Positions 22,989 through 46,710 of a stretch of 64,000 bases of DNA are shown piece by piece. How positions within the stretch are numbered: position 1 is the first letter of the stretch; the number at the start of each line of letters is the position of its first letter. The notes beneath the pieces are model-generated. The model had not been told where the DNA came from and did not search any database. It saw nothing but the letters and a program-made list of their open reading frames with translations. The DNA comes from an uncultured delta proteobacterium. Lineage in GTDB: Bacteria > Desulfobacterota > Binatia > Binatales > Binataceae. The stretch covers positions 640,001 through 704,000 of the forward strand of contig CAWJET010000001.1 of the NCBI GenBank assembly GCA_963842085.1, read 5' to 3'. Made by a program: the position numbers and the translations under genes.

Positions 22989-23849
22989 TTAGATTCCGGC
23001 AAAGAAAGCTATCAGCGTCACAGCAAGCAGAAAGAAGCCGATGCCGACAGTGACGATCGCAATGACTCCGGCAAAATTATTGAGCCAGCGCGGCGGTTTG
23101 TCAGCCTCAACTTGCTTGAACTCGTTATGCTCGGCCAGGCGCTGGTACTCCAGGGGCCGTTCAAGGCGCAACTCATCGCCGCTTACCCGGCCGGTAAAGA
23201 TCACCGGATCCATCGGAAATTTCTCGGGCCGCAGGTGGGTGTTGAAATAATGGATGATGAAGATGAACCATACTGCGAGCAGCGCTTCTTCGCCATGGAT
23301 AAGCAGCGCCACGTTGAGCATGTAGCCGGGCATGAACCGCGCAAAGAAAGGCGCAAACCACATCATGTACCCGCTCAGCCCGATCATAGCCAGTCCCCAA
23401 AAGACCGCCCAGTAGTCGAATTTCTCCCAGTAGGTGTAGCGGGCGAAACTCGGCTTCGGTCCCAGCCAGAAAAACCACTTGAAATGCCGATAGAGGTCGA
23501 AAAGGTCCTGGGGTTGCGGGACTAACGAGGTCGGTCCCCAGAACATCCCTCGTTCGCCCTTGATGAGACCGCGGTAAAGGACTTGGCCTACATGGAAGAC
23601 GAAGCCCGCTGTCAGCAGCACGCCGCAAAGCTTGTGAAGGAAGAGAACGGCGCCAAAGCCGCCCATCGTATCGGTGATGTCCTTCGCCCACAGCGTGTCG
23701 CTGAAGCGCAGGGGCATCCCGGTAGCTGCCAGCCCAATGAATGTCACCATGAGGAGAGCATGAAGAAAACGCGGCCCCAGCGTAAACCGGAAGTAATAAT
23801 CGGTGGCCGGCTTGTCGGCGTTCATATTCTCTCCCGCAAAGCTCGCCAT
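22989..23849 (-). CDS. Di-heme cytochrome b membrane subunit (FdnI/CbcL C-terminal type)
   Basis: RFLH.L...TGMP, FLHK, FHV, YTYWEKFDYWAVFWG, IHGEEALLA..FIF.IHYFNTHLRPEKFPMD. Confidence 0.88.
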   Translation of the reverse strand: MASFAGENMNADKPATDYYFRFTLGPRFLHALLMVTFIGLAATGMPLRFSDTLWAKDITDTMGGFGAVLFLHKLCGVLLTAGFVFHVGQVLYRGLIKGERGMFWGPTSLVPQPQDLFDLYRHFKWFFWLGPKPSFARYTYWEKFDYWAVFWGLAMIGLSGYMMWFAPFFARFMPGYMLNVALLIHGEEALLAVWFIFIIHYFNTHLRPEKFPMDPVIFTGRVSGDELRLERPLEYQRLAEHNEFKQVEADKPPRWLNNFAGVIAIVTVGIGFFLLAVTLIAFFAGI

Positions 23850-23870
23850 TCCCGCAAACCCCCGGACGGC

Positions 23871-25061
23871 CTAACTGCGCCGCCTCTCAGACCATGAGCG
23901 CACAAACCACAATAGCGTATGCAATCCGAAGAACGCGAACACGGACAGCAGTATCAGGTTCATAGCCCACGCGGCGTAGTAAAGGACCGGATTCAGCGCG
24001 CGATCATGAGGATTGGGGTGAGGCTCGTAGCTAACGAAGCTTTTAGTACCACCGCGATGGCACTTGCCACAGGTGGAGAGCAGATTCTGCGGTGCAATTG
24101 AAGACCTGGGATCCGATAGGGGCAGAATAAGGTGGCTTTGGTGACAGCTCCAGCAACTCGCGGTCGCCACGAACCCGAGTGCGGTCACCTGTCCGTGGAA
24201 AGTATCCCGATAACTCGCCAGCCGCTCTTTGTGGCAGTTCCCGCAGGTTGCCACCGACCGCGTCTGCCACGCGGCCGTCTGAACCCTGGCGATGCGATGC
24301 ACGGTGTGGCAGTTGGTGCAGACCGGCGCCGCGGCGTTGCCGGCGTTGAGGGCCTTGCCATGTACGCCCTCGAAGTAGCGTGCTTCGATATCGGCGTGGC
24401 ACGAGCCGCAAGTGGCCGGGACGTTTTTGCGGTAGGTTCGGCTTTGCGGGTCGTTCGGGCTTAGAATGCGATGGCTCCCGTGACAACTGGCGCAGCTTGC
24501 GGCGACCAAAAGGCCGTCCCTGGTGAGAGCGAAGCCGTGGATTGAATCGATATAGAGCCCGTAGACATTGGTGATGCCGTAACGCCGGGCCATCGCTGGA
24601 CTTCCGTGACAACGTCCGCAGGTTCGCGGAAGGTTGAGCGGGTAGACTGGGGACTGGGGATTGCTCTTAGATAAGATCTCGTGTGGGTTACCGTGACAGT
24701 TAAGACAGGCTGGGTACTTGAGCGCCTGCTGGTCCCATTTCGCTGCGTGGATGCTCGCGCCGAAATCCTTGGCGGCATCGCCGTGGCACTTATCGCAGTC
24801 GACCTTGTCGGGTTTGGGAATATGTGGAAATGCCTTGACGTCCGAGTGGCAGAACGCACAGCCGAACGGACCATGCGCTGAGGACTGGAAAGGCGCCGCG
24901 CTTACATACAGGCTGACCGGTTCGCCCTTTTGAGCCGTGGTGGGCGCAACATTGTGACAGTTCAGGCAATCCTTCGTAGCCAGCGGCGCCGCCGCATTTG
25001 CCACGCCCCACGCCACGGCCACGAGCGCCATCACAATGAGATGTCTGGCTCTTGTGAGCAT
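23871..25061 (-). CDS. 11-heme c-type cytochrome with C-terminal TM helix (CbcL N-terminal type)
   Basis: 11 CxxCH motifs, signal peptide, C-terminal FFGLHTLLW helix. Confidence 0.9.
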   Translation of the reverse strand: MLTRARHLIVMALVAVAWGVANAAAPLATKDCLNCHNVAPTTAQKGEPVSLYVSAAPFQSSAHGPFGCAFCHSDVKAFPHIPKPDKVDCDKCHGDAAKDFGASIHAAKWDQQALKYPACLNCHGNPHEILSKSNPQSPVYPLNLPRTCGRCHGSPAMARRYGITNVYGLYIDSIHGFALTRDGLLVAASCASCHGSHRILSPNDPQSRTYRKNVPATCGSCHADIEARYFEGVHGKALNAGNAAAPVCTNCHTVHRIARVQTAAWQTRSVATCGNCHKERLASYRDTFHGQVTALGFVATASCWSCHQSHLILPLSDPRSSIAPQNLLSTCGKCHRGGTKSFVSYEPHPNPHDRALNPVLYYAAWAMNLILLSVFAFFGLHTLLWFVRSWSERRRS

Positions 25062-25207
25062 CAACACCAAAGCCCCGCCGGCGCTATCCCCCGCCGCCAC
25101 CGCTACGACAAGCCTCGCATGGGACATTTCCTGGTGAAATTGCCGGCGTTTAGCGTGACTCCGATCGTATCGTCCCACTCATCGATCGCACCGTAACGCG
25201 CGGGGCG

Positions 25208-25759
25208 TCATTTGACCTGCTTGGTCGCGATGTAATCCACGATCTCGTTCACCCTTTGGCGTCTCTCTGCCTTGGTCAGGGGACCTTCATTCAGCCCGAA
25301 GGGGCCCGTCGGCGCGTAGAGGTCCAGGCTCCACACCGGCATCTTACGCGTGCCATGAGCAACCACAGTTTTCGTCCCGACCACGTAGTCGTAGATTTCG
25401 GCGCGCGGATACTTTCCGCCGTCATGCTTGGCAAGCAGGGTGAGATCTGATGGGGGCGTTTTCAATACTTTGGCTACTGGCCCGTCTCCGGTCAGGCTCT
25501 CTCCGTGGCAGCTCCCGCAATTGTATTCGTAGAGCAACTTGCCGATTTCCAATGCGCCTGCGGGAGCAGGCTGCTGGATTTCCTCGCCCTGTGAGCCTTG
25601 GGCCCAAGCAGTTGCAGAAAGGGCCGGAATCGGTGCCAGCATCAGCACGACTAGCGGAACAAACAATCTGGGCAAATGTTCCGAAAAGAGACCTCTTTTA
25701 CTTCCTGCGAGCGTCCAATGCACCGGAGGCCTTGCCTTCACAAGAGACTGCGTCAACAT
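25208..25759 (-). CDS. Monoheme class I cytochrome c
   Basis: CGSCHG...GDGP...AHGTRKMPVW; signal peptide; start uncertain. Confidence 0.88.
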   Translation of the reverse strand: MLTQSLVKARPPVHWTLAGSKRGLFSEHLPRLFVPLVVLMLAPIPALSATAWAQGSQGEEIQQPAPAGALEIGKLLYEYNCGSCHGESLTGDGPVAKVLKTPPSDLTLLAKHDGGKYPRAEIYDYVVGTKTVVAHGTRKMPVWSLDLYAPTGPFGLNEGPLTKAERRQRVNEIVDYIATKQVK

Positions 25760-25804: not shown

Positions 25805-25996
25805 TCAAAGGATCCCGTGTTCTCGCAGGTCTCTAAAGACGGAATACACATAGAGCAGAAAACCCAGAGCGAATAAGGGAATGCCGAAAAAGAAAAACAG
25901 GCACATTGTGATCGGCGTGGTTTCGACGATGCATGGAACTGCGAGTAGAAATCCAAGACTGGCAGAGATCAGGGCGGCCGATATCAATGTTAGCAT
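25805..25996 (-). CDS. Small two-TM membrane protein downstream of napC-like gene
   Basis: 63 aa, two hydrophobic helices, starts 3 nt after the napC-like stop. Confidence 0.65.
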   Translation of the reverse strand: MLTLISAALISASLGFLLAVPCIVETTPITMCLFFFFGIPLFALGFLLYVYSVFRDLREHGIL

Positions 25997-25999
25997 ATG

Positions 26000-26515
26000 C
26001 TATTTCTCTGGAGTGTGAATCGGCTGATGGCATGTAACGCAGCTGAGCTGGCTCGCCAGGATCGGCTTCATCACCGCGGCGTGCGCAGGATTGGTTCTGA
26101 AGTTTTCCGCCGGACCGTGGCACTGCAAGCAGTTCCCATTCGGGAAAGGTTTGTAGAGTTTAATTTGTTGCGGCATTCCTATGCCAGTGTAATAAATCGC
26201 CACATGCCTCATGCTTATAAGCTTCGTTTTAATCGGGCCCATAAAGCCGTAATCCGCATGGCAGGTATAGCATTGGTCATCGAGTATCCAGCGATTGCGG
26301 AAATGCATCGCGGCTAACGCCTTACTCTTCGGGTTGTGCAGATCATTCACCCATGGCGTCATAGTATGGCAATCAGCACAGAAGCTTACGTGTTCCGCCC
26401 GCTGGAACGACAGGGCGAACGTGGCAAGTACGAGCAGAGCCGGCGCGACTCCAAGGACAACCAGTAGCAGCAGTTTCTCTCGTATACTGGGTGCGCTATT
26501 AGCTGGCTGCATCAC
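26000..26515 (-). CDS. NapC/NirT/NrfH/CymA-family tetraheme quinol dehydrogenase
   Basis: One N-terminal TM helix; CADCHTM (CxxCHxM), CYTCH, CLQCH, CVTCH. Confidence 0.9.
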   Translation of the reverse strand: MMQPANSAPSIREKLLLLVVLGVAPALLVLATFALSFQRAEHVSFCADCHTMTPWVNDLHNPKSKALAAMHFRNRWILDDQCYTCHADYGFMGPIKTKLISMRHVAIYYTGIGMPQQIKLYKPFPNGNCLQCHGPAENFRTNPAHAAVMKPILASQLSCVTCHQPIHTPEK

Positions 26516-26865
26516 GAACCGAGGTGCCTGAGGTAATCGATCAAACCCTTGACCTGATCGTCGCTGAGATCCGGCGATGCCGGCATGGTCGGAGATTCAC
26601 CTACCGCTCCGCCCCCGCCTTTGATCACTTTGGCTATCCAATCATCGGTTCGGCCTTTGATCGCGTTCGCGATGGCCGCGGGCGGCGGCTGCAGGTACTT
26701 GCCCGCGGGACCATCGCCGCGCCCCGTATCACCGTGGCATGGAGCGCAACGCTCGGAATAAAGTGTGGCTGACGCGTCTGCCGCCAGCGCGCTGAAGTCG
26801 TAACACAGAGTTAAAGCGAGCGTTGAGCCGGCCATAATAAGGACTAGCGGAGTTAGATGGTTCAT
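26512..26865 (-). CDS. Monoheme cytochrome c (paralog of 31554..31997)
   Basis: Signal peptide; CAPCHG.TG.GDGP...GESPTMP. Confidence 0.9.
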   Translation of the reverse strand: MNHLTPLVLIMAGSTLALTLCYDFSALAADASATLYSERCAPCHGDTGRGDGPAGKYLQPPPAAIANAIKGRTDDWIAKVIKGGGGAVGESPTMPASPDLSDDQVKGLIDYLRHLGS

Positions 26866-26892
26866 GGCCCTGTCGACATCCTCGCATGAGTG

Positions 26893-27819
26893 TCATTGCG
26901 ACTTGCTGGCACCAGTGCTCTTCGCCGACTCATTTGAATCAATCTTGGCCAACAGCACATCGATCCTCGTGCGAGCCGCCTCTCCCGGCGCAAGCGCGCG
27001 TGCTCGCGACAGTGCCTGACGCGCATCGGGATTGTCATTGAGCATCAGGTACGCCGCCGCAAGGTTAAACTGAGCTGGAAAGAACCCGGGCTGGAGCGCG
27101 AGCGCCGCATGGTAGCGCGCGATCGCCTCGTGCGAGTTGTGCTGGGACAGATACATCGTGCCGAGGTCGGTAAGTACCCGCACGTCGTCCGGTTTAAGGC
27201 GCAAGTAGTGTTGATACGCGGCGATCGCTTTGTCGAAATGTCGTTGATCGAAGCATACGTTTCCCAGCCCGCGCAGCGCGTCGAGATTGTCGGGGTCGAG
27301 TTCGAGCACGTGAGCGAAGGCTTCACTGGCCTTGTCGTAATTGGCAGGGTCGAACGCCGCGGACCGGAAAACCACGTCGCCGAGACGGTTCCAAACTGCG
27401 ATGTCCTTTGGGTGGGCCTGGGCCTGTTTCTCCGCCTTGGCGATAAGCGCGCTGGTAGTGTGGTCCGCACCACCAACCATTGGATGCCCCGCCGGTAAGG
27501 AGACCGCCGGATGCCCGGGCGGCATAGTAGCTGCTTTTGCGTTCAAGACAGGTGCAGACGCTTTGACAGTTGCCTGTATGACGCCTGGCGAACGGTCGTG
27601 TCTCCCGGAAGTCACAAACACCGAGGTCAGAATTCCGCCGAGCAAAAATGCGCCGAGGACTGCGGCCATCCATGAAGTCGAGAACCCGCCGCGACGGGGC
27701 TGACTGCCGCTCGGCCGCCGTGATTCCTCCTCGCCACTCGCATCGACGCGATTGCCGCACTCAGCGCAGAACTTCGCGCCCATCGGAACCGGTGTCTCGC
27801 ATTGTGAGCAATCGGCCAT
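26893..27819 (-). CDS. Zinc-ribbon + TM + TPR protein (CycH/CcmI/NrfG-like maturation factor candidate)
   Basis: CSQC...FCAECG ribbon, TM helix, MPPGHP/LPAGHP motifs, several TPR repeats. Confidence 0.75.
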   Translation of the reverse strand: MADCSQCETPVPMGAKFCAECGNRVDASGEEESRRPSGSQPRRGGFSTSWMAAVLGAFLLGGILTSVFVTSGRHDRSPGVIQATVKASAPVLNAKAATMPPGHPAVSLPAGHPMVGGADHTTSALIAKAEKQAQAHPKDIAVWNRLGDVVFRSAAFDPANYDKASEAFAHVLELDPDNLDALRGLGNVCFDQRHFDKAIAAYQHYLRLKPDDVRVLTDLGTMYLSQHNSHEAIARYHAALALQPGFFPAQFNLAAAYLMLNDNPDARQALSRARALAPGEAARTRIDVLLAKIDSNESAKSTGASKSQ

Positions 27820-27832: not shown

Positions 27833-29137
27833 CTATTGCAGCGCCGCACCGTCCGCAGACGAGCGCGCCGCTTGCATACTGCTGGTGGCGGTGAACTTGC
27901 CGGTCTTGGGATTGAACAACTCCGCCGTGCCGAGCGTGTTGCCCGAGTTGTCGATCCCGCCGGCGATCAGTACATAGCCCTTCTTGTGGCCCGAGGTAAT
28001 CAGCACTGCCGTATGAAGAGCGCGAGGCGTGGTCATGGCGCCGACCGGCGTGAAAGTTCCCGCAACCGCATTATACACCTCGGCGGTCGATAGCACGGTT
28101 CCGGTGGTGTCTTCGCCGCCGGCGATGAGGATGTCCCCGGAACGAAGCTGAGTCGCGGTATGCAGGTAGCGGGCATGGGTCATGCTGCCAGTCGCAGCAA
28201 AGTTGCCGGCCGTCGGACTGTAGAGTTCGGCCGTCTGCAGCACTACGCCCGAAGCGTCGAGGCCGCCGGCAATCAGGACGTCGCCCGCATTGGGCCCGGT
28301 TACGAGCAGGGTGGCGGTGTGGTTTTCGCGGCTGTCGGTCATCGTGTTGTTGCAAAAACCCGTCATCGCGTTCAACCCGCCAAGACCCGTGCAGCCGAAG
28401 GTTCCCGCGACGGGGTCGAAAAGCTCTGCCGTATTGACGATCGAACCATCGAAGCCGCCCGCGATCAGCACACGGCCATCGTTTAACAGCGTTCCGGTGT
28501 CGTGGAAGCGGGCATCGGTCAGCGTGCTCAGGCAGTAGCCGGTGGTCGGATCGGTTCCGCCAAGCCCTGAGCACTCGAATTTGCCGCTAGCCGGATTGTA
28601 CATGTCCGCGGTATTGACGATGTTTCCCGTTTGATCTTCTCCGCCCGTGATTAGAACCTCGCCATTCTGCAGCACGGTGGTAGTGTGCGCGAAACAATGG
28701 GCGTCAGTCATGCTACCGGTTGCGGAAAACGTACCAGTTGCTGGCGAGTAGACCTCCGCAGAGTTGAGGCATGTCACGCCGACCGCGTTGCCACCCGCAA
28801 CCAGCAGACCGCCGCCCGGCAGCGCCGCCACCGACGCGTAGAAGCGAGCCTGCGCCAAGGTGTTGTTGCATGCCCCGGTCGCGGGATTTGCGCCTCCAAG
28901 GTAGTTGCAGGTGAAGGTCCCCTTCTTAAAGTAGTAGAACTCCGCAGTGGCCATCGGGCCGTTGAACTGATCGGCGCCTCCAACAAGCAGCACGCCGTTG
29001 CTCGAACCGCCACTCAAGGGATGCTTTCGGGCCAGGGCCGCAGGGACTGCTGAAAGGAGCCCAAAAAACAAAAGCGGCAACAACCACATGGCCGGTGAGA
29101 AATTGCGCTTACTTCGCTGCGATGCTCTGGTCATCAT
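27833..29137 (-). CDS. Secreted Kelch-repeat beta-propeller protein
   Basis: Signal peptide; repeated R..HTA.LL..G.VLIAGG...AELY.P..G.F. Confidence 0.9.
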   Translation of the reverse strand: MMTRASQRSKRNFSPAMWLLPLLFFGLLSAVPAALARKHPLSGGSSNGVLLVGGADQFNGPMATAEFYYFKKGTFTCNYLGGANPATGACNNTLAQARFYASVAALPGGGLLVAGGNAVGVTCLNSAEVYSPATGTFSATGSMTDAHCFAHTTTVLQNGEVLITGGEDQTGNIVNTADMYNPASGKFECSGLGGTDPTTGYCLSTLTDARFHDTGTLLNDGRVLIAGGFDGSIVNTAELFDPVAGTFGCTGLGGLNAMTGFCNNTMTDSRENHTATLLVTGPNAGDVLIAGGLDASGVVLQTAELYSPTAGNFAATGSMTHARYLHTATQLRSGDILIAGGEDTTGTVLSTAEVYNAVAGTFTPVGAMTTPRALHTAVLITSGHKKGYVLIAGGIDNSGNTLGTAELFNPKTGKFTATSSMQAARSSADGAALQ

Positions 29138-30363
29138 CGCGTCGCGGCCACGGTCTTCAGCCGCGCCCCGCCCTCATCGCTGATTTCCTTATGATTGGTT
29201 TGCCGATGGCTCGCCGGGCCGTAAACGGCTTGTATCTCGCGCCATAGCGCGAGCTGGTCGGAGGTACCGTTCAGTTCATGCGCTGATACCATCAGCGTGC
29301 CGGTCGAAAACGGCGGCAGGCTCCACCAGTCGCTGTGTTGCGCGGTCATCAGGGGGATAAAAGCGCGAGCGGAGTCGGCGGTGAACTCCGCATGGCAGGT
29401 AAATTGATTCAGTGACCCCTGCGCGCCACACGAGTACGGCAAGTTTTCGGCGACTTTCCAGTCATGGAATCGTTCCGTAAGCCCCACCGGAGTTCCCGTC
29501 GTATTGCCCGCGACGCCGACAATATAGGGGGCCATGTGACAATCGAGACACGTCACACCCGCATCGAACATCACCTGAAAGATCGCATTCGTATTCTCCG
29601 GCGTGCTGTGCGGATTCACTTCGTGACAGTTCAGGCAGAATTTGCTTTCCTGACCCGGGAGGATAGGAATCCACGAGGTTGCCAAGCTCGGATTCGAGCC
29701 ACGGATGAGCGTAGCCGTTTCGCCGCCCGATATCGCAGTTGGATACATCGTCAAGATCTCCGCTGCGATAGTGTTGCTCGGATGGCACGAGCTGCACGTC
29801 ACGCCCTGAAAGCTCGAAACTGTGACCGGGTCGATCACCGAACCGTCTAAGAACATTCCGGGCTCGGTCGCGGCGGCTTGAAGCGGCGAATGGCAGAAGG
29901 CGCAGAAAGTGTTGTCGGTCTCGCCGTACGGCCCGGGAGGTTGCACCCAGCCGTAATTGGTCGCCGTGCTTGACCAGCCGTACTGTGACTGAGCGTGACG
30001 CGAGTCCCACCAGCCATGGCCCGTTCGCTCCCACATGTTGGTGGCGCTGTTAAACTGAAGACCGGCAGCTCGCGCCGTGTGATCGTACCCATCGATAAAG
30101 TGGCAGGAGGTACATGTAACGTTGGAGTAATCATATTCGGGACGGACCAGGTTCTTGCCGGGAGGGATGATCGTCACGCATGAACCCTGAGCAGTCCACC
30201 CGAGGATCAACGCACCGAGGAGCGCAGCGATCCGAACCATTCTCGGGATTGGCAACTGCCCGTAGAGCCCACCAGCCGGACGAGCAATAGCCTCAGGAGG
30301 TAGCTGCTTTCGTCGGCTCGCGGTGGCGGCGTTGATATTCATCATCTTCACTGCGGCACTCAC
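29134..30363 (-). CDS. Multiheme cytochrome c (5 CxxCH + CX10CH)
   Basis: CTSCH, CAFCH, CSSCH, CLNCH, CLDCH and CGAQGSLNQFTCH; start may lie downstream. Confidence 0.88.
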   Translation of the reverse strand: MSAAVKMMNINAATASRRKQLPPEAIARPAGGLYGQLPIPRMVRIAALLGALILGWTAQGSCVTIIPPGKNLVRPEYDYSNVTCTSCHFIDGYDHTARAAGLQFNSATNMWERTGHGWWDSRHAQSQYGWSSTATNYGWVQPPGPYGETDNTFCAFCHSPLQAAATEPGMFLDGSVIDPVTVSSFQGVTCSSCHPSNTIAAEILTMYPTAISGGETATLIRGSNPSLATSWIPILPGQESKFCLNCHEVNPHSTPENTNAIFQVMFDAGVTCLDCHMAPYIVGVAGNTTGTPVGLTERFHDWKVAENLPYSCGAQGSLNQFTCHAEFTADSARAFIPLMTAQHSDWWSLPPFSTGTLMVSAHELNGTSDQLALWREIQAVYGPASHRQTNHKEISDEGGARLKTVAATR

Positions 30364-31439
30364 ATGGCGTCAATCTTCGATATCTCTCGCTCCAGTATCT
30401 TGTAGTCCGCGAGTGTAGGCGCCCCGTGCGCCGCCATTGCGGTCTGTGCCATGCCATTGAACGGCGGCAGGCTCCACCATTCCGTGTGCTGCTCGCGGAT
30501 CATCGGGATGATGTTCTGCGCGTCGGTTACAGTGAATTTTGTAAATCTGTTGTTATGACACCCCGACACTGATCCTATCGCGCCGCAGGAGTATGGAAGA
30601 TCCGCGCCGACATTCCAGTTGTGAAACACTTCCTCGAGCACGGGAAGGCCGGTGCCGTCGCCGCCGATGGACTGGTAGGGCGCCATATGGCAGTCGATGC
30701 ACCGGACAGGACCACCGCCAGGACCGTGCGTCGTCGTATACATTGCCTCAAACGCCGAGTTGTCGGTGTTGTGACGCTGCTCATGGCAGTTGAGGCAGAG
30801 CAGGTCTTCCTTCGAAGTGCCATCGCCGTTCACTCCGGCGTCCAGCGTCTGATATGAGGCAGGATTGTTGACGCCCTTCCAGAGATAGATTGCGGTCGCC
30901 CCGCCGTATAGCGCATTCGGATACAACGCGCCGATCTGCGCGGTGATGTTGTCCGGGGGATGACACGTTGCGCAGGTCACGGCCTGGAATCGCTGCTGCG
31001 GAACAGGGCCAGCATTGGCAACAGCCCCATTGTTGAACCCGGCAGTCGCGGAAGCTTGAAGCGGAGAATGGCACTTTGCGCAAAAGGCGTTCTCGGTCGA
31101 GCCATGATCGGACTGCGAGTGTGCTGAGGCGAGCCATCCGTTGCCGGTCAATTGCCAGGTCTGGGTCGGAACATTCCAGATCACGCCGAATGCGCGCGAA
31201 GTGTGGTCAAGGCCGAGTATAAAATGGCACCCGGCGCACGTCTCGCCCTCGCCATAATCGTAGGTGGGCAGCGACATGTTGGTGGGGAGCGTGGGATAGA
31301 GTATGCCGGGCGCGACCGCCGCGGTCGCGGGCGAGGACGAGGTCGAACTATTGACCGGCGACCGCCCGCGCGCCCACGCCGGCGCAGCGAGAAGGAGTAC
31401 TATCAGGACAACCGAGATCAACGAACGCATACGGCCCAC
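30360..31439 (-). CDS. Multiheme cytochrome c (5 CxxCH + CX8CH), paralog of the neighbour
   Basis: Signal peptide ..APAWA; CAGCH, CAKCH, CATCH, CLNCH, CIDCH and CGAIGSVSGCH. Confidence 0.9.
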   Translation of the reverse strand: MGRMRSLISVVLIVLLLAAPAWARGRSPVNSSTSSSPATAAVAPGILYPTLPTNMSLPTYDYGEGETCAGCHFILGLDHTSRAFGVIWNVPTQTWQLTGNGWLASAHSQSDHGSTENAFCAKCHSPLQASATAGFNNGAVANAGPVPQQRFQAVTCATCHPPDNITAQIGALYPNALYGGATAIYLWKGVNNPASYQTLDAGVNGDGTSKEDLLCLNCHEQRHNTDNSAFEAMYTTTHGPGGGPVRCIDCHMAPYQSIGGDGTGLPVLEEVFHNWNVGADLPYSCGAIGSVSGCHNNRFTKFTVTDAQNIIPMIREQHTEWWSLPPFNGMAQTAMAAHGAPTLADYKILEREISKIDAM

Positions 31440-35465: not shown

Positions 35466-35508
35466 GGATGCGTACGGTCCCCGCGGCAAATTATCAGTAT
35501 TCTTGGTC

Positions 35509-39665: not shown

Positions 39666-39948
39666 CTTTTTTTCTCTCGCCAGCCGCAATTTCGCCGCGC
39701 ACGTCGGCCGCCATCAAATCCTCGCGCTCGGCTTCGCGCAGCAATTCCTCGTAAAGGGCAAGGGTGGCTTCGACCTCCGCGGCGGGAATCTTGCGGATCG
39801 CGTAACCGACATGATTGAGCACGTAGTCGCCGGGACCGACCGGCTCGTCAACGATGTCGAGCAGGACCTCCTTGCGCACGCCCCAGAAATCGACGGTCGC
39901 GACGGAACCTGAAACTCCGACCACTCTGCCCGGTACACCGAGGCACAT
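39658..39948 (-). CDS. hypC: HypC/HupF chaperone
   Basis: MCLGVPG...GDYVLNHVGYA. Confidence 0.96.
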   Translation of the reverse strand: MCLGVPGRVVGVSGSVATVDFWGVRKEVLLDIVDEPVGPGDYVLNHVGYAIRKIPAAEVEATLALYEELLREAEREDLMAADVRGEIAAGERKKDG

Positions 39949-42320
39949 CAGAGGCGGCCTCCCTTCGATTCGCGCACGCGTGCCGCGGCGACCATCGCTT
40001 GCCCGAGTGCGATACCGCCGTCTCCGGCCGGGACCTCGCGCGGCAAAAAAACCTGGGTAACGCCGGCCAGGGCGTCGAAGATTCCTTGCGCGAGCCGCGG
40101 ATTCTGAAAGCATCCGCCGCTCAGCACGACCGGGACTTGTCCGTGCTCTGCGAGCGCCGAGCGCACCGTCGCTGCTGTTCCTTCAATCAATGTGTTGTGA
40201 AAGCGCGCCGCGATCCGGCGGCGATCGGCGCCCGCGATAACTTCATGGACAATCCTGCGAACCATCGGCCGCAGATCCAGGCTCCACGGCTGCTGATTGC
40301 GATGGAGGGAAAATTCATAGACCCCGGTTTCACGGGGATCGGCGAGATTGTTGAGCATCATAGCGACCTGCCCTTCGTAGGCGGCATGCTGCTGCGCGAA
40401 GACCAGCGCACCAATCGCGTCGAAGTAGCGGCCGATGCCGTGCGCGCTTGCTGTATTCAGTCCGCTTGCGATCATGCGCCTTACGGTCGTCGCGGCGCCT
40501 GCATCGATCCGCGAGAAAAGCCCGAGCCGCTCGAATTCGTTAAACGACCCGCCGAAGGCATCCTCGATCAGCGCGAGCGCTAGCCGCCAGACCTCGCGCA
40601 CCGCGCGATCGCCGCCCGCCAGCGCGACCGGCCGAATCGTCGCAATCCGCTCGAAGCCGGCGAAATCCGCGAGCATCAACTCGCCGCCCCACATCGCGCC
40701 ATCGCTCCCGAGCCCCGACCCATCGAATGCGACCCCGAGAACCGGACCCGCAAGGCCGTGTTCCGCCATCGCACTCGCAACATGCGCATGATGATGCTGC
40801 ACCGCGACGGTAACGCACCCCTTGCGCCCCACCGCATAACGGGTCGAGAGATAATCAGGATGCAGGTCGTGCGCGATTATCTCGGGCTTCACGCCGACGA
40901 AGCCTTCCATCCTTGCGATCGACTCCTCAAAAGCCTCGTAGGTCTCGAGACCGTCGAGATCGCCGATGTGCGGACCGAACCAGATCGAATCCCCGCTGCC
41001 CAGGCAGAACGCATTTTTGAGTTGCGCTCCGACGGCCAGGACCGGTCGCTCGAATGGCGGATCGATTGGCACAGGACGTGGCACATAACCTCGCGAGCGG
41101 CGCAGCACGGTTGGAGCGCCTGCGATCATGCGCGCAACCGAGTCGTCGCATCGGGTCACGATTTCACGGTCGTGGATCAGAAAGAGGTCAGCAATCCCTC
41201 CCAGCCGAAGGAGCGCCTCATCGTTGCGATAGGCGATAGGTTCATCCGACCGGTTTCCCGACGTCATCACCAGCGGTCTCTGCGCTGCCGCCAGAAGCAG
41301 GTGATGCAACGGCGTGTACGCGAGCATGACGCCGACGAGCGGGGTTTCCGGCGCGACCTCGGCAGCGAGACCCGCATCCGGATGCCGGTGGGCGAGAACG
41401 ATCGGCCGCTCGGGCGAGGACAACAGTGCTCGCTCCGTGGGACCAAGAACGGCGAGGCGCTCGGCGTCTTCGAGCTCACGCACCATGACGGCGAACGGCT
41501 TTTCATCGCGATGTTTGCGGATGCGCAGCCGTGCGACCGCGGCCGCCGATGTGGCGTCGCAGGCGAGGTGAAACCCGCCAAGACCCTTGAGCGCGACGAT
41601 ACGCCCTTCGCGCACTGCGAGGGCCGCGTCGCCAATCGGGTGGCTCGATGCCAACTCGTCGCCCGCCGCTGCGAGCAGCCGCAGACTCGGGCCGCACTCG
41701 CGACAAGCGTTTGACTCCGCGTGAAAACGTCGATTACCGGGATCTCGGTACTCGCGCAGGCACTCGGCGCACATCTCGAACGCCGCCATCGTTGTCGCGC
41801 CGCGGTCGTAAGGGACATCACACGCGATCGTGAAGCGCGGGCCGCAGTTCGTGCAGTTGGTGAAGGCGTAACCGAAGCGGCGATCTCCGCGATCGAAGAT
41901 CTCGGCGACACATTCGCGACAGGTTGCCATGTCGGCGGGTATCGATACGCAGCGCTCCGCGCGCTGCTCGCTCGCGGCGATCTCGAAATGAGGCCGCTGC
42001 TCGAACTCCAGCAGGTTTGCCTGCACAGTCTTGAGTCGTGCCCGCGCAGGCGCCTCGGTAATCAGGCGACTGACAAAGCGGTCCAGCACTACGCGCGAAC
42101 CGAAGGCTTCTATAATGACGCCCGCCGCGTCGTTACGAACGCTGCCGGTCAGCCCCTCTTCACGCGCCAGCCGGTAGACGAAAGGCCGGAAGCCGACGCC
42201 CTGCGAAATTCCCGTCACTTTGATCTTGCGGCCCGCGAGTCCTGACACATCCATATCAGGGTCGACTGCATGGGACGGTGAGAAGCAGACGTCCGCGAGC
42301 TGTGGCTCCTCACCGTTCAT
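39948..42320 (-). CDS. hypF: HypF carbamoyltransferase
   Basis: QGVGFRP acylphosphatase, zinc fingers (CTNCGPR), KGLGGFHL, TSGN, QHHHAH, GDGGIALGQ. Confidence 0.97.
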   Translation of the reverse strand: MNGEEPQLADVCFSPSHAVDPDMDVSGLAGRKIKVTGISQGVGFRPFVYRLAREEGLTGSVRNDAAGVIIEAFGSRVVLDRFVSRLITEAPARARLKTVQANLLEFEQRPHFEIAASEQRAERCVSIPADMATCRECVAEIFDRGDRRFGYAFTNCTNCGPRFTIACDVPYDRGATTMAAFEMCAECLREYRDPGNRRFHAESNACRECGPSLRLLAAAGDELASSHPIGDAALAVREGRIVALKGLGGFHLACDATSAAAVARLRIRKHRDEKPFAVMVRELEDAERLAVLGPTERALLSSPERPIVLAHRHPDAGLAAEVAPETPLVGVMLAYTPLHHLLLAAAQRPLVMTSGNRSDEPIAYRNDEALLRLGGIADLFLIHDREIVTRCDDSVARMIAGAPTVLRRSRGYVPRPVPIDPPFERPVLAVGAQLKNAFCLGSGDSIWFGPHIGDLDGLETYEAFEESIARMEGFVGVKPEIIAHDLHPDYLSTRYAVGRKGCVTVAVQHHHAHVASAMAEHGLAGPVLGVAFDGSGLGSDGAMWGGELMLADFAGFERIATIRPVALAGGDRAVREVWRLALALIEDAFGGSFNEFERLGLFSRIDAGAATTVRRMIASGLNTASAHGIGRYFDAIGALVFAQQHAAYEGQVAMMLNNLADPRETGVYEFSLHRNQQPWSLDLRPMVRRIVHEVIAGADRRRIAARFHNTLIEGTAATVRSALAEHGQVPVVLSGGCFQNPRLAQGIFDALAGVTQVFLPREVPAGDGGIALGQAMVAAARVRESKGGRL

Positions 42321-42724
42321 GTCTCACCCAGCGTGTGGATGTACGCGACCAGGTCCCAGATCTGGCGGTCGGTGAGCGTCGACCACGACGGCATCGCGGC
42401 CCCCTGGACGCCGTCATGAATCGCCCGATAAGTCTGCCACGCGTTCGCCGAATCGGACCATGGCGGGACTGTGAGATTGCCCGGCGGCGGCTCCATTCCC
42501 ATGCTGCGGACGCCGTGCCCGTCGCCTCTCTCGCCGTGGCAAATTACGCAATTCTGCATGAAGAGCGCGCGTCCTCTTTCTCTCGCCTCGCGCGACGCAA
42601 AGAGCCCGGATGGAGCCTGCGCTGCGCCGGGCGGTCTACCGCTCCTGCTGCACCCGATTATCGCGCACAACATCCCCAGCGCAGCTGTCGCGACCCTCCG
42701 CGCCACTCTTCGGCGACAGTTCAT
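42317..42724 (-). CDS. Monoheme cytochrome c, probable lipoprotein
   Basis: IIGC lipobox-like; CVICHGERGDG.G...G.AMPSW. Confidence 0.85.
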   Translation of the reverse strand: MNCRRRVARRVATAALGMLCAIIGCSRSGRPPGAAQAPSGLFASREARERGRALFMQNCVICHGERGDGHGVRSMGMEPPPGNLTVPPWSDSANAWQTYRAIHDGVQGAAMPSWSTLTDRQIWDLVAYIHTLGET

Positions 42725-43187
42725 ATCCAAGACCTCGAGCCTCACGCACTATCGCCTCGACCAGCCCCTCCAATCCCGCGTCGACAGGATCGGAACGCTC
42801 AATACTCAAATCCATTGTTTCCGGCACCAGTCCCAGCAAGGTGACCGAGGTTGGAAAAGAGTCGATGAGTCGCGCGGCGTCGAAAAGATCTGCAACCCCA
42901 ACCTGGTGAGGGGACAGGCGCTCGCGGACTGCGGGTGGCACCTCGTCTCCGTCGATTCGGACCAGTGTTCCCGGCGGAGCATCGACGCGAACCGCATCTA
43001 CCAGAATCACGTGTTCCGACTCGGCAAACAGCCCAAGCAGTGCGAGCCCAAGCGTGCCGCCATCTGCAACCCGAACCCGTGGCGGAATATTGTAATTGCG
43101 TTCGAGCCGAGCCACTGCGGCGGCGCCGAGTCCGTCGTCGCGAAGCAGTATATTGCCAAGCCCGAGAACCAATAATTCGTCAGGCAT
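42636..43187 (-). CDS. hyaD: Hydrogenase maturation endopeptidase (HyaD/HybD family)
   Basis: LGLGNILLRDDGLG, DGGTLG, LVDAV, SPHQVG. Confidence 0.95.
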   Translation of the reverse strand: MPDELLVLGLGNILLRDDGLGAAAVARLERNYNIPPRVRVADGGTLGLALLGLFAESEHVILVDAVRVDAPPGTLVRIDGDEVPPAVRERLSPHQVGVADLFDAARLIDSFPTSVTLLGLVPETMDLSIERSDPVDAGLEGLVEAIVREARGLGYELSPKSGAEGRDSCAGDVVRDNRVQQER

Positions 43188-43896
43188 CGCGTTTCCTCTC
43201 CGCGACGCCTTCCGGGCCTACGCGCTTGTACCCCGAAAATATCGAATCGATGATCCCGCTGCGCTCCGTCATAGAAAAAAGAGTCGCCGAGTACACGTGA
43301 TGAATCATGAAGATCAGGAGCAACCACATCCCGACATGATGGACCAGGCGCACCATCTGAAGTCCGCCGAAAATCGGGATCAGGAACCCGAAGAACTGAA
43401 AAGGCGAGTTCACTCCGGCATAGACGGTATAGAGAGCGAGACCGGTGCCGATCATTGTGAAGTAGATCAAGAAGATAACTGCGTAGGTTGCACCGGCCAT
43501 CCCGCTGTGGCCGGCGTACGGCTCCGGGTCGCGGCGCACAAAGCCATAAAAGCGCATCGACTGCCAGATGCTGCTAAAGCGTTCGCGCGTGACCGGAATG
43601 AACTGGTGCCAACGCGCATAGTAATTGCCGGCGAACATCCAGTAGACACGCACAAATACCGACAAACTGAAGACGACGGCCGCATACAGGTGGATCAGGC
43701 GCATGGTGCCCATAACGAAGTGATCGCGGGCGGGCCCACTGACTGCGATAAACGGATGACCTATATAGAAGCCCGTAACCGCAAGCACTGCGATCGAAAG
43801 AACGATCAGCCAGTGCGTGATGCGCACCGGCAGTTCCCAGGCATAGACAAGGCCGGAGCCGGGCGGCTCCGGCACAGGCCGCGGCAGTGCGCTCAC
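43180..43896 (-). CDS. hyaC: Ni/Fe-hydrogenase b-type cytochrome subunit
   Basis: YAWELPVRITHW, RLIH, RLVHH, IHHVY, SIFSGYK; GTG start overlaps the large-subunit stop. Confidence 0.95.
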   Translation of the reverse strand: MSALPRPVPEPPGSGLVYAWELPVRITHWLIVLSIAVLAVTGFYIGHPFIAVSGPARDHFVMGTMRLIHLYAAVVFSLSVFVRVYWMFAGNYYARWHQFIPVTRERFSSIWQSMRFYGFVRRDPEPYAGHSGMAGATYAVIFLIYFTMIGTGLALYTVYAGVNSPFQFFGFLIPIFGGLQMVRLVHHVGMWLLLIFMIHHVYSATLFSMTERSGIIDSIFSGYKRVGPEGVAERKRDA

Positions 43897-45602
43897 AGGA
43901 CCTTGACGCGGGCCAACTCGCGCCTCCTGGCGTCCACCACGTGAACGCCGCACGCCATGCACGGATCGAATGAGTGCACCGTGCGGAGTATTTCGAGTGG
44001 TTGATCCGGCTTCGCCACCGGAGTGCCGACGAGCGACGCCTCGTAAGGACCCGGCTGGTTCGCATGGTCCCGCGGGCCGGCATTCCAGGTGCTCGGCACG
44101 ACACACTGGTAGTTCACGATCTGGCCGTTGCTGATGTGAACCCAGTGGCCGAGAGACCCGCGCGGCGCTTCGTGAAAGCCGGCGCCGTAACAGTCGGCGG
44201 GCCAGCTCTCCGGCTCCCATTTCGAGTTGTCCTGGATACGGTAGTCACGGCGCGCCATGTTCTCGCCCAGGGCGGTTACCCAGTCGCCCATCTTTTCCAC
44301 CACGACCTGAGTCTCAATGGCGCGCGCCGCCACTCGCCCCAAGGTCGAGAACAGCGCTTGCGGTCCAACGCCGAGCGCCGCCAGGGCTTTGTCAACCAGT
44401 TGCTTGACCTGCGCCGGCCGGCCCGACACGTACGCGACCAGCATGCGCGCGAGCGGCCCAACCTCCATCGGCGCACCCTCATAGCGCGGTGATTTGAGCC
44501 AACTGTACTTCTCCGCCAGCACCAGTCGTTCGTACGGCGGCTTGGGTCCGGTGTAATGCGGGTCGGTTTCCCCCTTGTACGGATGTAGCGCTTCGCTGTC
44601 GCCGCCTGAATATTCGTACCAGGAATGTGCGACCTGCTCCGTGATCTTTCCCTGGTCAACCGGCTCGACCTTTGAAATATCGCGCCCCCGGATTATCCCG
44701 GATGGCATCCATAGCTCAGGATTTTCGCTGTCGTCCTCGGGATAATCGCCATACACCATGTAGTTGCCGACGCCCGCGCCGATCGAAGCCCAATCCTTAT
44801 AGAATGATGCGACTGCCAGGACGTCGGGCAAATAGACACGCTTGACGAAGTCGCGGCCTTCGGCGATGAGCTTGTCGAGCGCCGAGATCGTGTCGGCGTT
44901 GAGCGCGGCTTGCGAGTCGGGATCAACCGGCGTCGCCATGCCACCGACCAGGAAACTTTGCAGGTGCGGATTTTTTCCGCCCAGGATCGCATGGATCTTG
45001 ATGAAGCGCCGCTGCCAGTCGAGCGCCTCCAGATAATGCGCAACCGCCATCAGATTCGCCTCGGGCGGCAGGCGGTACGCCGGATGACCCCAGTAGGCGT
45101 TAGCGAAGGGCCCAAGCTGGCCGCGCTGAACGAACGTACTGATCCGGTCGCGTACTCCCGAAAAATACTTTGCACTCGACAGCGACCAGTCTGAGATCGA
45201 CTGGGCAAGCGTGGCGGTCTTGGCCGGATCGGCCTTGAGCGCCGAGGTGATATCGACCCAGTCGAGTGCATGCAGATGGTAGAAATGGATCACGTGGTCG
45301 TGGACGCACTGCGCCGCGATGATGAGGTTGCGCAGCAGCCGCGCGTTGGGCGGCGGTTGCGCGCCGATTGCGTGCTCGACGGCGCGAATCGAGGCGATCG
45401 CGTGAACTGTGGTGCAAACTCCGCAGATGCGTTGGGTGAAGACCCATGCGTCACGCGGATCTCGCCCCTTGAGAATGATCTCGATGCCGCGAAACATCGT
45501 CGACGACGACCAGGCCTCATTCACCTTGCCGCCATCGACTTCGGCTTCTATTCGGAGATGCCCTTCGATGCGCGTTATCGGATCAACGACGACGTGGGTC
45601 AT
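43893..45602 (-). CDS. hyaB: Group 1 [NiFe]-hydrogenase large subunit
   Basis: DPITRIEGH, L1 QRICGVCTTVH, L2 SFDPCMACGVH followed by a cleavable tail. Confidence 0.98.
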   Translation of the reverse strand: MTHVVVDPITRIEGHLRIEAEVDGGKVNEAWSSSTMFRGIEIILKGRDPRDAWVFTQRICGVCTTVHAIASIRAVEHAIGAQPPPNARLLRNLIIAAQCVHDHVIHFYHLHALDWVDITSALKADPAKTATLAQSISDWSLSSAKYFSGVRDRISTFVQRGQLGPFANAYWGHPAYRLPPEANLMAVAHYLEALDWQRRFIKIHAILGGKNPHLQSFLVGGMATPVDPDSQAALNADTISALDKLIAEGRDFVKRVYLPDVLAVASFYKDWASIGAGVGNYMVYGDYPEDDSENPELWMPSGIIRGRDISKVEPVDQGKITEQVAHSWYEYSGGDSEALHPYKGETDPHYTGPKPPYERLVLAEKYSWLKSPRYEGAPMEVGPLARMLVAYVSGRPAQVKQLVDKALAALGVGPQALFSTLGRVAARAIETQVVVEKMGDWVTALGENMARRDYRIQDNSKWEPESWPADCYGAGFHEAPRGSLGHWVHISNGQIVNYQCVVPSTWNAGPRDHANQPGPYEASLVGTPVAKPDQPLEILRTVHSFDPCMACGVHVVDARRRELARVKVL

Positions 45603-46710
45603 GCTCGGGGCCCTCTGAACTGCTCTTGGAACCGGCCGGCTCGGTTCCCGTGTGATGCCGCACGATCTGGCCGACACCATGGGCGACCGACGCCGCGCCC
45701 ACAATTCCCGCCGCGGCCAAGCCAATCCGATCGAGGTTGGCGTTCACGTTGAATCCAGGAACATTGGGCAAGCGCCGATAGAAAGGCGTCATGGTGTCCC
45801 AGAAATTCGGCTCCGCACAGCCGACACACGGATGGCCGCAGCCGATCGGCCAGTTCGTGCCCTCATTCCATCGCACTTCCGGACAGTTTTGCGAGGTCGC
45901 GGGCCCTTTGCATCCCATCTTGTACAGGCAGGCGCCGTTCCGATGGGCTTCGTCGCCCCAAGCCTCGACGTACTGTCCGGCATCGAAGTGTGCGCGCCGT
46001 TCGCAGTTGTCGTGGATGAGTTTTCCGTAGGCGAAAAGCGGACGCCGGTACCGATCCAGTGGCGGCCACTGCTTCATGGTCATGTAGTAAACAATTAGCG
46101 CCGTTATGTTCTCGGCGTTCATCGGGCATGCTGACATATTGATCAGGTTGTTGACGCCCGGCACCGCATCGCCGACCGAGACCGCGCCGGTCGGGTTGGG
46201 GCGCGCCGCCGGTATCCCGCCGAAGGTCGCGCAGGTGCCGACCGCGATCGTTGCCGCAGCCTTGCCGCACACTTCGCGCGCGATCTGCAAAGCGCTGCGA
46301 CCGCCGATGGTGCAATAGGCTCCGTCGGCACCTGTGGGAATCGCTCCTTCAACCAGGGCTATGTACTTTCCCGCGAAGTCGCGAACCGTGCTGTCAAGCG
46401 CGCTCTCAGCTTGAAAGCCGGCTGCAGCCATCAGGGTTTCGTGGTAGTTCAGCGAAATCGAATCCAGGATGAGGTCACCGACGGTCGGGTGACTCGCGCG
46501 CAAAAACGACTCCGTGTTACCGGCACAGTCCTGAAACTCGAGCCAGACGAGAACGGGCTTCGGCGCCATCTCGATATTTGCGGCAATCATGCTGGCCGCC
46601 GTCTCCGGCATCGCCAGCAGCGTCGCCATCGAGGCACAGAATTTCAGGAAATCGCGGCGTGACACGCCGCGGTACGCGAGCTCTTTACCCAGCCAGCTAT
46701 TGGACGCCAT
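45583..46710 (-). CDS. hyaA: Group 1 [NiFe]-hydrogenase small subunit (Tat signal, C-terminal TM anchor)
   Basis: SRRDFLK, DCAGNTES, GTCA.FGG, ACP, HDNC..R, CLYKMGCKGP, GHPCVGC. Confidence 0.98.
   Translation of the reverse strand: MASNSWLGKELAYRGVSRRDFLKFCASMATLLAMPETAASMIAANIEMAPKPVLVWLEFQDCAGNTESFLRASHPTVGDLILDSISLNYHETLMAAAGFQAESALDSTVRDFAGKYIALVEGAIPTGADGAYCTIGGRSALQIAREVCGKAAATIAVGTCATFGGIPAARPNPTGAVSVGDAVPGVNNLINMSACPMNAENITALIVYYMTMKQWPPLDRYRRPLFAYGKLIHDNCERRAHFDAGQYVEAWGDEAHRNGACLYKMGCKGPATSQNCPEVRWNEGTNWPIGCGHPCVGCAEPNFWDTMTPFYRRLPNVPGFNVNANLDRIGLAAAGIVGAASVAHGVGQIVRHHTGTEPAGSKSSSEGPEHDPRRR

Follow-up and report, generated by a model that had tools for sequence, protein, structure and literature searches.

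What joins an uptake hydrogenase to an electron conduit through the outer membrane when the genes for both stand in a single row, and in which direction would electrons pass along it? The question is raised by the genome of an uncultured member of the genus Binatus (GenBank assembly GCA_963842085.1; 4.93 Mb, two contigs), in which a hydrogenase operon with its hyp maturation genes runs directly into a porin-cytochrome cluster of the kind associated with extracellular electron transfer (EET). The locus lies on contig CAWJET010000001.1 within a stretch of 64,000 nucleotides (positions 640,001 to 704,000), hereafter referred to as the window, whose numbering is used below unless another contig or locus is named. 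Binatia are abundant uncultured bacteria of soils and wetlands, for which aerobic methylotrophy and alkane degradation have so far been described. The reading that we favour, with somewhat less than even confidence, is that the genes form a modular supercluster for respiration, most likely one or a few co-regulated units, which would link H2 oxidation to electron export at the outer membrane.

The row is unbroken on the minus strand from position 46710 down to 22989 and holds 25 genes, each with family support. A Pfam scan of 25 minus-strand open reading frames (ORFs) between 22989 and 46767 gave a fitting family for 24; the exception, orf96 (25833-26123), had been taken for a small membrane gene, but was dropped because it has no family and overlaps the NapC-type gene, and a conserved 63-residue ORF at 25805-25996 was taken instead. 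When the likeliest start codons are used, neighbouring genes overlap or are separated by no more than ~120 nt. An earlier note on this DNA, made from the letters alone, had counted 24 genes, although its own list also names 25; the content and order that it gave, from hya and hyp genes to a porin-cytochrome row, are borne out by the Pfam families and heme counts. The row opens with hyaA, for the [NiFe]-hydrogenase small subunit (45583..46710; PF14720 and PF01058; TIGR00391 at 412 against a cut-off of 179.5), followed by hyaB, for the group-1 large subunit (43893..45602; PF00374, 785.6 bits), hyaC, for the b-type cytochrome subunit that acts as quinone reductase (43180..43896; PF01292, 92.9 bits; TIGR02125 at 170 against 121.5), and hyaD, for the maturation protease of the large subunit (42636..43187; PF01750 HycI, 87.8 bits). 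Next come c142, a class-I monoheme cytochrome c whose signal resembles a lipobox, IIGC (42317..42724; PF13442 and PF00034; one CXXCH motif), and the maturation genes hypF (39948-42320), hypC (39658-39948), hypD (38532-39665), hypE (37490-38521), hypA (36264-36605) and hypB (35509-36264), with a crotonase gene of the enoyl-CoA hydratase (ECH) family (36618-37481) between hypE and hypA, all seven assigned by their Pfam families.

The conduit genes begin immediately beyond hypB with a periplasmic decaheme cytochrome of the MtrA/MtoA type, DmsE family (34386..35465; 10 CXXCH), and an outer-membrane barrel of the MtrB/PioB family (32025..34352; PF11854, 259 bits against a cut-off of 23). They continue with the class-I monoheme cytochrome c147 (31554..31997, likely start near 31865; PF00034 and PF13442; one CXXCH), the pentaheme cytochrome mh359, which has a signal peptide (30360..31430; five CXXCH), its paralogue mh409 (29134..30240; five CXXCH), a secreted Kelch β-propeller protein (27833..29137; Kelch_1, 3, 4 and 6 at 89-110 bits), and a protein that combines a Zn-ribbon, one transmembrane (TM) helix and periplasmic tetratricopeptide repeats (TPR) of the CcmH/CycH type (26893..27819; PF23914 at 44.8 against 42, besides general TPR families). 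Then follow the class-I monoheme cytochrome c117 (26512..26865; Pfam and CXXCH count), a CymA-like membrane tetraheme cytochrome of the NapC/NirT type (26000..26515; four CXXCH) and tm63, the conserved ORF of 63 residues with two TM helices (25805..25996). The tail of the row consists of c183, the fourth monoheme cytochrome c of the row (25208..25759; Pfam and CXXCH count), h11, an 11-heme cytochrome c with a C-terminal membrane helix (23871..25178, likely start near 25061; 11 CXXCH; Cytochrome_C7 and c3 families), and a cytochrome b resembling FdnI/HydC, the partner of h11 (22989..23849).

The two halves meet at 35466..35508, where 43 nt containing a GGGGA ribosome-binding site separate the hypB stop at 35509 from the decaheme ATG at 35465, exactly as the earlier note had stated. 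The gap is ~27 nt in genome G021 and ~31 nt in G007, and a ribosome-binding site of the GGGGA type is conserved in all three genomes. A consensus scan called no promoter at the junction and predicted no terminator there, the region as a whole holding 12 terminator-like sites against 16.4 expected; a hairpin at the junction was considered as a terminator and rejected (RNA fold z = -1.65, without a U-tract). The sequence marks of a single operon, namely one strand, short gaps and no predicted terminator, are thus all present. A contig from another sample (X2) spans 34822-35985 with 0 differences, while contigs of two runs from a second study (X3 and X4) reach 35539 and bridge the junction only borderline. 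Because X2 bridges the junction and G021 and G007 show the same order, a mis-join is excluded. The earlier note had named a separate transcription start or terminator at this point with uncorrelated expression, an adjacency unique to this assembly and a mis-join as findings that would overturn it; no terminator is predicted, and the latter two do not apply.

The comparison covered a collection of 47 genomes of the genus, in which the genome under study is G000 and G021 corresponds to locus L023. The fused layout occurs in three of the 47 (G000, G007 and G021), and the order from hyaA to tm63 is identical in all three. On an rpoB tree of 40 genomes, from which G011, G015, G020, G023, G030 and G068 (no rpoB match) and the unpublished G018 were left out, the three do not form a clade (3 changes). 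Nucleotide identity of the block genes among them is 80-92%, compared to 70-81% between these and the hya-hyp genes of G034 and G035, with rpoB at ~92% in all pairs. As the identity of the block exceeds the G034/G035 level at equal rpoB distance, these values fit a fused block that moves or survives as a unit. In G007 the MtrAB genes are a different allele, with 56-59% identity to those of the window, whereas the hyp genes (84-97%) and pentaheme genes (83-87%) on either side are similar, which argues that the junction survived an exchange of the conduit genes. Base composition was also considered as a signal of foreign origin; GC is 64-67% in most hyp genes and 53-62% in the EET genes, but it yields no usable signal because the GC3 ranges overlap (0.60-0.80 and 0.55-0.74) and both lie within the spread of long ORFs in the genome (mean 0.72, sd 0.08).

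The locus is at the same time a mosaic of four modules that occur separately. The set MtrA-MtrB-c-NapC-tm63 constitutes the entire cluster in G003, G030 and G070; the unit mh359-mh409-Kelch-TPR stands upstream of MtrAB in six other Binatia loci (L026, L031, L032, L033, L108 and L112), in L112 with an 882-residue NHL-repeat protein between the pentaheme unit and MtrA; the h11-cytochrome b pair lies downstream of MtrAB in the same six loci and after tm63 in G000 only; and the hya-hyp block is found alone in G034, with a related block alone in G005, G028, G002 and G061. Comparison of G007 with its rpoB sister G003 reveals ~25 kb of extra DNA (hya-hyp and other genes) between a shared upstream flank and MtrA, and ~5 kb (pentahemes, Kelch and TPR) between two monoheme genes. 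The fusion may have arisen when a resident mtrAB-c-napC-tm63 locus received two insertions, the hya-hyp block and the pentaheme block, and it would thereafter have been inherited or transferred in one piece. The cluster in L112, which belongs to G005 and represents what we call type C, carries an NHL-repeat/Ig-like protein (the 882-residue protein; 4451-7099) and a 510-residue NapC-like multiheme cytochrome (12580-14112), then h11-cytochrome b, Band-7, monoheme c and Rieske genes.

The hydrogenase has the features of a group-1 membrane-bound uptake enzyme: a NiFeSe_Hases large subunit, a small subunit with a Tat signal and a b-type cytochrome. HyaA carries the twin-arginine signal SRRDFLKF and a C-terminal anchor, and HyaB is the sole PF00374 match in the genome, its best solved relative being 3myr_B at 719 bits (its relatives in the PDB span 540-719 bits). 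Pointers to the subgroup are mixed, as this best relative is the A. vinosum enzyme, yet the operon holds HyaC rather than Isp proteins. Binatota hydrogenases were reported to be mostly of group 1f, with 1c, 1h and 1i also present, in the accessible text of Murphy et al. 2021 (PMC8262859). On the role of group 1f, the paper that introduced HydDB offers a single line. In the proximal-cluster motif of HyaA, Asn replaces the second Cys of C-x-G-C (DCAGNTES; codons at 46540-46565), so that a motif comparison did not find the four-Cys ligand set of a proximal [4Fe-4S] cluster. The five Binatus enzymes of this kind (G000, G007, G021, G034 and G035) all keep the Asn, and G034 alone among them reads DCCGNTES (C-C-G-N); the term '3Cys1Asn' was not found in the literature. 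Alignment to the HoxK and Hyd-1 small subunits likewise revealed none of the extra cysteines of the six-Cys O2-tolerance motif of group 1d. The monoheme c142 is a member of the hydrogenase operon and is also present in the hya operon of G034, where no EET genes adjoin. The order of the hyp genes, including the ECH gene, is the same in G007, G021, G034, G028, G005 and G002, so that none of the Binatus hyp clusters seen, that of G000 included, lacks the crotonase gene between hypE and hypA.

For the conduit, the decaheme cytochrome fits its family: ten CXXCH motifs and a signal peptide are present, the DmsE-family model TIGR03508 is passed (236.4 against a cut-off of 192.2), and the match to 6r2q_A has E = 7e-50. 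The barrel misses the stricter model TIGR03509 (198.9 against 240). No protein of the OmcA/MtrC family was found anywhere in the genome, where the best TIGR03507 match reaches 19.1 bits against a cut-off of 209.3, and the earlier note's statement to this effect can thus be extended to the whole genome. The tetraheme cytochrome passes PF03264 (48.6 against 24.1), whereas it stays below all NCBIfam cut-offs for NapC, NrfH and TorC. Directly 3' of it, tm63 is found in every locus with a NapC homologue of at least 52% identity, its own identity ranging from 43 to 85%, and tm63 is hence a constant partner of the NapC-type gene. The monoheme c147 was considered as a candidate MtoD; among solved structures, which presumably include one of MtoD, 6h5l_B matched it best, and MtoD did not appear at E <= 0.1.

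The earlier note had also described the outer module as non-standard. This is true in that MtrC/OmcA is lacking, but the module is not simply missing, since two pentaheme cytochromes that probably belong to the NrfA/OcwA family, together with the Kelch and TPR proteins, lie inside the cluster. A single pentaheme sequence had no match among solved structures, but a profile of 40 family members matched 6i5b_A (OcwA) best (E = 1.7e-14), followed by NrfA chains (E = 1e-10 to 1e-6), octaheme nitrite reductases, MccA-type proteins and 6qvm. OcwA of Thermincola potens is an NrfA-family terminal reductase of the cell surface, with NrfA, c554 and MccA as kin, and it also reduces soluble substrates, as far as the accessible text of its description goes (PMC6703420). 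The mh359 family is small (69 relatives among 1.84 billion representatives), and the Atlas model is poor (pLDDT 0.42, TM 0.4-0.54). The paralogue mh409 is ~40% identical to mh359 and has a conserved Cys after the signal region. Throughout the family, an invariant Cys is followed 8-10 residues on by Cys-His (LPYSCG...CH), and this extra Cys-X8-10-Cys-His may either bind a sixth heme, as an unconventional site with a long spacer, or form a disulfide. The Kelch gene accompanies the pentahemes in eight other loci.

These similarities leave room for a reading without mineral respiration, in which the decaheme and barrel would form a supply line like that of DmsEF and feed the pentahemes; these would be enzymes, located at the outer membrane or beyond it, that reduce or oxidise a soluble compound such as nitrite, hydroxylamine or a sulfur oxyanion. 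The DmsE-family score of the decaheme, the enzymes matched by the pentaheme profile together with the soluble substrates of OcwA, the extra Cys-X8-10-Cys-His and the CcmH/NrfG-like TPR partner would all suit such a role. Nevertheless, the minimal conduit of G003, G030 and G070 does without pentahemes, and a motif count in the proteins of the row found no CXXCK, so we regard this as the least likely of the readings put forward here.

The tail genes c183, h11 and cytochrome b are joined to the row only in G000, c183 being absent after tm63 in G007 and G021. The h11-cytochrome b pair recurs in six other Binatia loci as separate but constantly paired genes. The cytochrome b itself scores below the cut-offs of both TIGR01583 (34 against 116) and PF01292 (26 against 30.1), and matches 1kqf_C with E = 0.0012.

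How might these parts work together? Under limiting O2, HyaABC would reduce the quinone pool, and the quinol would be re-oxidised by the NapC-tm63 and/or h11-cytochrome b modules. The monoheme cytochromes would then ferry electrons to the decaheme within the barrel, and the pentaheme and Kelch proteins would replace MtrC as terminal, possibly surface, reductase, whose electrons would probably pass to Fe(III), Mn(IV) or humic substances of acidic soil. The TPR protein would have a part in the maturation of cytochromes. H2-fed outward transfer seems to us a better, if still tentative, account of the locus than Fe(II) uptake. Counted in its favour are the lack of O2-tolerance cysteines in HyaA, the putative kinship of the pentahemes to a terminal reductase as their best solved relative, the presence of the hydrogenase tracking that of MtrAB, a 1h-like hydrogenase near MtrA in G012, and a junction kept at 27-43 nt in three species, across the MtrAB allele exchange. 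Moreover, as 46 of the 47 genomes are without RuBisCO, we infer that the CymA-like module is easier to understand as oxidising quinol for export than as running in reverse for autotrophy. The earlier note had gone further and proposed that one locus encodes a complete wire from H2 to the exterior. All parts from H2 through quinone and periplasm to the outer membrane do lie on one strand, with the tight junction in three species; they may form a single wire, but the modules also occur separately.

Several observations weigh against H2-driven export, the first group of them against the coupling and the second against the direction. MtrA and/or MtrB are present in 18 of the 47 genomes (the unpublished G018 and G023 included) and a Hya-type group-1 hydrogenase in nine (G000, G002, G005, G007, G021, G028, G034, G035 and G061). 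All nine of these have MtrAB, while none of the 29 genomes without MtrAB has the hydrogenase, a distribution with a naive hypergeometric chance of ~4e-5. This figure is weakened because kin are not independent, and once relatedness is taken into account the co-occurrence loses its significance (2-4 independent contrasts agree and 0 are opposed; sign test p = 0.125-0.5). The two systems are adjacent in only three of the nine genomes that have both, and six of the eight such genomes other than G000 keep them apart or on different contigs; in G035, G028, G005, G002 and G061 they lie far apart or on other contigs. G034 was considered as a fourth case of adjacency and rejected, as the contig runs from its hypB into HicAB-like genes and then stops, MtrB being the first gene of another contig. 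In the genome under study, furthermore, the 43-nt gap contains an AT-rich, weakly promoter-like patch, below the threshold of the scan and seen in G000 only. The HicA/HicB-like pair of G034 (L105, 12381-13189) lies on the opposite strand right after hypB, at the place where other species carry the decaheme gene.

Such facts would be expected if the two systems were uncoupled neighbours in a variable region that gathers respiratory modules by insertion, the tight junction being a by-product of insertion beside a resident locus; the hydrogenase would then feed aerobic or other respiration via quinone, independently of the conduit. The separate occurrence of all four modules and the large insertions and deletions between sister genomes fit this account, as do the c183-h11-cytochrome b tail, a Calvin-Benson-Bassham (CBB) operon and a gas-vesicle cluster that are attached only in G000. 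Among 80 loci of other genomes fetched around MtrA homologues, only two (L023 and L064) have hydrogenase genes less than 10 kb away, and there is no shared FNR/CRP-type palindrome (22 matches against 14.4 +/- 4.1 expected, none of them upstream of hyaA, mtrA or cbb). Yet chance neighbourhood sits poorly with a junction kept in three non-sister species across an exchange of MtrAB alleles, with gaps of 27-43 nt that leave little room for separate control, with the co-occurrence in nine of nine genomes, and with further hydrogenase-MtrA neighbourhoods. One of these, independent of the fusion, is in G012 (L113, G012:C1:1836000-1855999), where a 1h-like hydrogenase cluster (with DUF6084, DUF5947, NifU, SIS and hypDEF) shares its strand with MtrA-MtrB-c-NapC-tm63, from which it is separated by an amidase gene and ~575 nt. 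The other is L064, from a metagenome-assembled genome (MAG) of Thermodesulfobacteriota, in which genes for a group-1 hydrogenase (both subunits and the protease) have a large multiheme cluster with an MtrA-like decaheme at a distance of ~1 kb; this multiheme cluster also holds a 619-residue protein of no family, an 863-residue cytochrome with an MtrC domain and a pair of multiheme cytochrome (MHC) and cytochrome b. We consider uncoupled neighbours unlikely.

The earlier note had left open that the conduit runs inward, and this alternative retains real support, although we rate export higher. The order decaheme-barrel-monoheme-NapC mirrors mtoABD-cymA, since the row also contains the monoheme c and the tetraheme of the NapC/NirT type, and it counts for uptake. 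In a decaheme tree, the phylogeny that the earlier note had suggested, the Binatia clade joins the side of Gallionella, Nitrosomonadales and Usitatibacter (support 85) and not that of Shewanella and Ferrimonas. The periplasmic carriers are class-I monohemes, and such carriers are typical of the Mto systems of Fe(II) oxidisers, while Shewanella and Geobacter use low-potential multihemes. By content the genome is aerobic, with five COX1 genes, one of them 3 kb past the window end (C1:707143-708516), and a CBB operon and oxidase genes are next door to the locus. A second MtrAB pair (C1:1817771-1821133, in L120, G000:C1:1815044-1821133) has genes for a monoheme c, a Tat-Rieske protein and a fusion of cytochrome b with a diheme c behind it, and is flanked by divergent CarboxypepD_reg and cupredoxin genes.

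Taken together, these points suggest a possible scheme of parallel lithotrophic donors, which we judge somewhat less probable than export. In this scheme, an Mto-like conduit would import electrons from reduced solids such as Fe(II) minerals, with H2 via Hya as a second inorganic donor; monohemes would pass the electrons to a terminal oxidase and, via NapC or h11-cytochrome b, into the quinone pool, and the two gene sets would adjoin through the microoxic, reduced conditions under which both are used, in G000 also feeding CO2 fixation. Beyond the layout, which equals mtoA-mtoB-mtoD-cymA of Sideroxydans ES-1 in the accessible part of its account (He et al. 2017, PMC5566968), and the tree, the scheme draws on four class-I monohemes with an MP motif, on the Rieske gene that accompanies the second MtrAB pair as well as type-C Binatia clusters, on five heme-copper oxidases, and on form-I RuBisCO/CbbX, COX2-cytochrome c fusion, multicopper-oxidase-like and heme O synthase-like genes within 5-16 kb. 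Against it stands that RuBisCO is present in only one of the 47 genomes and absent from the fusion genomes G007 and G021, so that autotrophy is not part of the conserved block; that a quinone-linked NapC module has no obvious uptake role in heterotrophs; and that MtoD was not matched among solved structures. Nor does the tree settle the matter, for the phylogeny of MtrA/MtoA does not fix the direction of flow, according to the accessible text of a Gallionellaceae pangenome study (PMC10734462).

In the boldest reading, the 22-23 genes from hyaA to tm63 would form one mobile operon tying H2 oxidation to EET, including a quinone-independent route from HyaAB through c142 and c147/c117 to the decaheme, with the pentahemes and Kelch protein taking the place of MtrC, as a terminal module at the surface of a Gram-negative cell that has not been described before, and Binatia would be H2-fuelled respirers of metals or humus in acidic soils. 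We think it improbable that all of this holds.

Comparison with known systems places the favoured supercluster between several of them. The nearest in layout is the mtoA-mtoB-mtoD-cymA(imoA) row of Sideroxydans lithotrophicus ES-1, where a decaheme is likewise followed by a barrel of the MtrB/PioB family, a periplasmic monoheme c and a tetraheme of the NapC/NirT type, and which in the accessible account has no MtrC (PMC5566968); the Gallionellaceae sequences also lie on the same side of the decaheme tree as those of Binatia. The Binatus row differs by tm63 after NapC, by the inserted pentahemes, Kelch and TPR genes, by the hydrogenase and hyp genes fused upstream, by hosts that are mostly non-autotrophic and by the lack of a sequence match to MtoD. 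Shewanella MtrCAB/CymA (6R2Q) shares the DmsE-family decaheme, the MtrB-type barrel, a NapC-type quinol dehydrogenase and a quinone-feeding uptake hydrogenase, whereas the Binatus genome lacks MtrC/OmcA and its carriers are monoheme instead of tetraheme. Shewanella reduces metals with H2 via Hya, and its hydrogenase and mtr genes are not known to form one locus. OcwA of Thermincola potens JR (6I5B) differs from its putative Binatus relatives in having nine hemes as opposed to five; in Binatus there are two paralogous genes, in a Gram-negative host and beside MtrAB.

For the tail, the modules to compare are those of the CbcL and CbcBA type in Geobacter, besides the PCC3 and PCC4 pairs of MHC and cytochrome b in the accessible part of He et al. 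2017 (PMC5566968). What the tail may share with these is a membrane-anchored multiheme c followed by a putative FdnI/HydC-like cytochrome b, but the Binatus module consists of two genes with 11 hemes, and its cytochrome b remains under the Pfam cut-off. The uet genes for electron uptake in Ca. Tenderia electrophaga resemble the Binatus row in combining multihemes and a barrel with β-propellers (NHL there and Kelch here, NHL repeats also occurring in type-C clusters of Binatia) and an NrfG-like TPR protein, in the accessible text of the report (bioRxiv 10.1101/2022.05.06.490989). Their cytochromes, however, are non-homologous by any test applied here, and uet has neither a hydrogenase nor an MtrAB pair. 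In Cupriavidus necator, plasmid pHG1 carries membrane-bound hydrogenase, hyp and cbb genes together. The resemblance to this knallgas island lies in the uptake hydrogenase with its cytochrome b, the full hyp set and form-I RuBisCO/CbbX within 5 kb in G000; the Binatus small subunit, in contrast, lacks the 6-Cys motif, a porin-cytochrome cluster is fused to hypB, and cbb genes occur in one of the 47 genomes.

The earlier note knew of no characterised operon with this layout, and none was found. The literature held no account of the layout or of any EET (Mtr/Mto) cluster in Binatia, although supplementary gene lists of Binatota or Gallionellaceae papers may name these cytochromes. Neither 'multiheme' nor 'porin' occurs in the accessible text of a Binatota genome survey (PMC8262859), and that of a survey of MtrCAB transmission mentions neither hydrogenase nor Binatota (PMC8805035). 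The parts themselves are of known kinds. Novelty lies in their fusion and the way it behaves as a unit, in tm63 as constant partner of NapC, in the combination of pentahemes with Kelch and TPR proteins, and in the occurrence of any such conduit in Binatia. If functional, the locus would be a ready-made genetic unit coupling H2 turnover to the redox cycling of soil iron, manganese or humus, and a compact cassette for engineered H2-driven bioelectrochemistry. The tm63 protein and the pentaheme-Kelch-TPR module are parts without a studied counterpart, and the locus also provides comparative data on how a pathway may be assembled, with modules inserted into a resident conduit locus and the whole block then moved.

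The surroundings of the row differ between species. A regulator gene of the Crp/FNR family (47406..48155, plus strand) is divergent from hyaA and is conserved beside it in G007. Synteny with G007 and G021 stops near 49700, and the CBB operon begins beyond this point, 5 kb from hyaA (51799..57799, plus strand; glpX, prk, class-II fba, the large and small subunits of form-I RuBisCO, and cbbX). As RuBisCO (PF00016) is found in G000 alone and the shared synteny ends before the operon, the latter is a recent add-on and not part of the fusion; it could make this species alone a facultative autotroph. At 57947-62489 follow a multicopper-oxidase-like gene, a COX2-cytochrome c fusion, a ribulose-phosphate epimerase gene and a UbiA-family (heme O synthase-like) gene, which together with the COX1 gene past the window end make up an oxidase cluster beside the cbb genes. 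On the other side of the row, the gas-vesicle cluster, joined to the region only in G000, occupies 9595-17362 with three GvpL/GvpF genes, a GvpN-like AAA_5 ATPase, a CDC48-type AAA ATPase and an HSP20-like gene.

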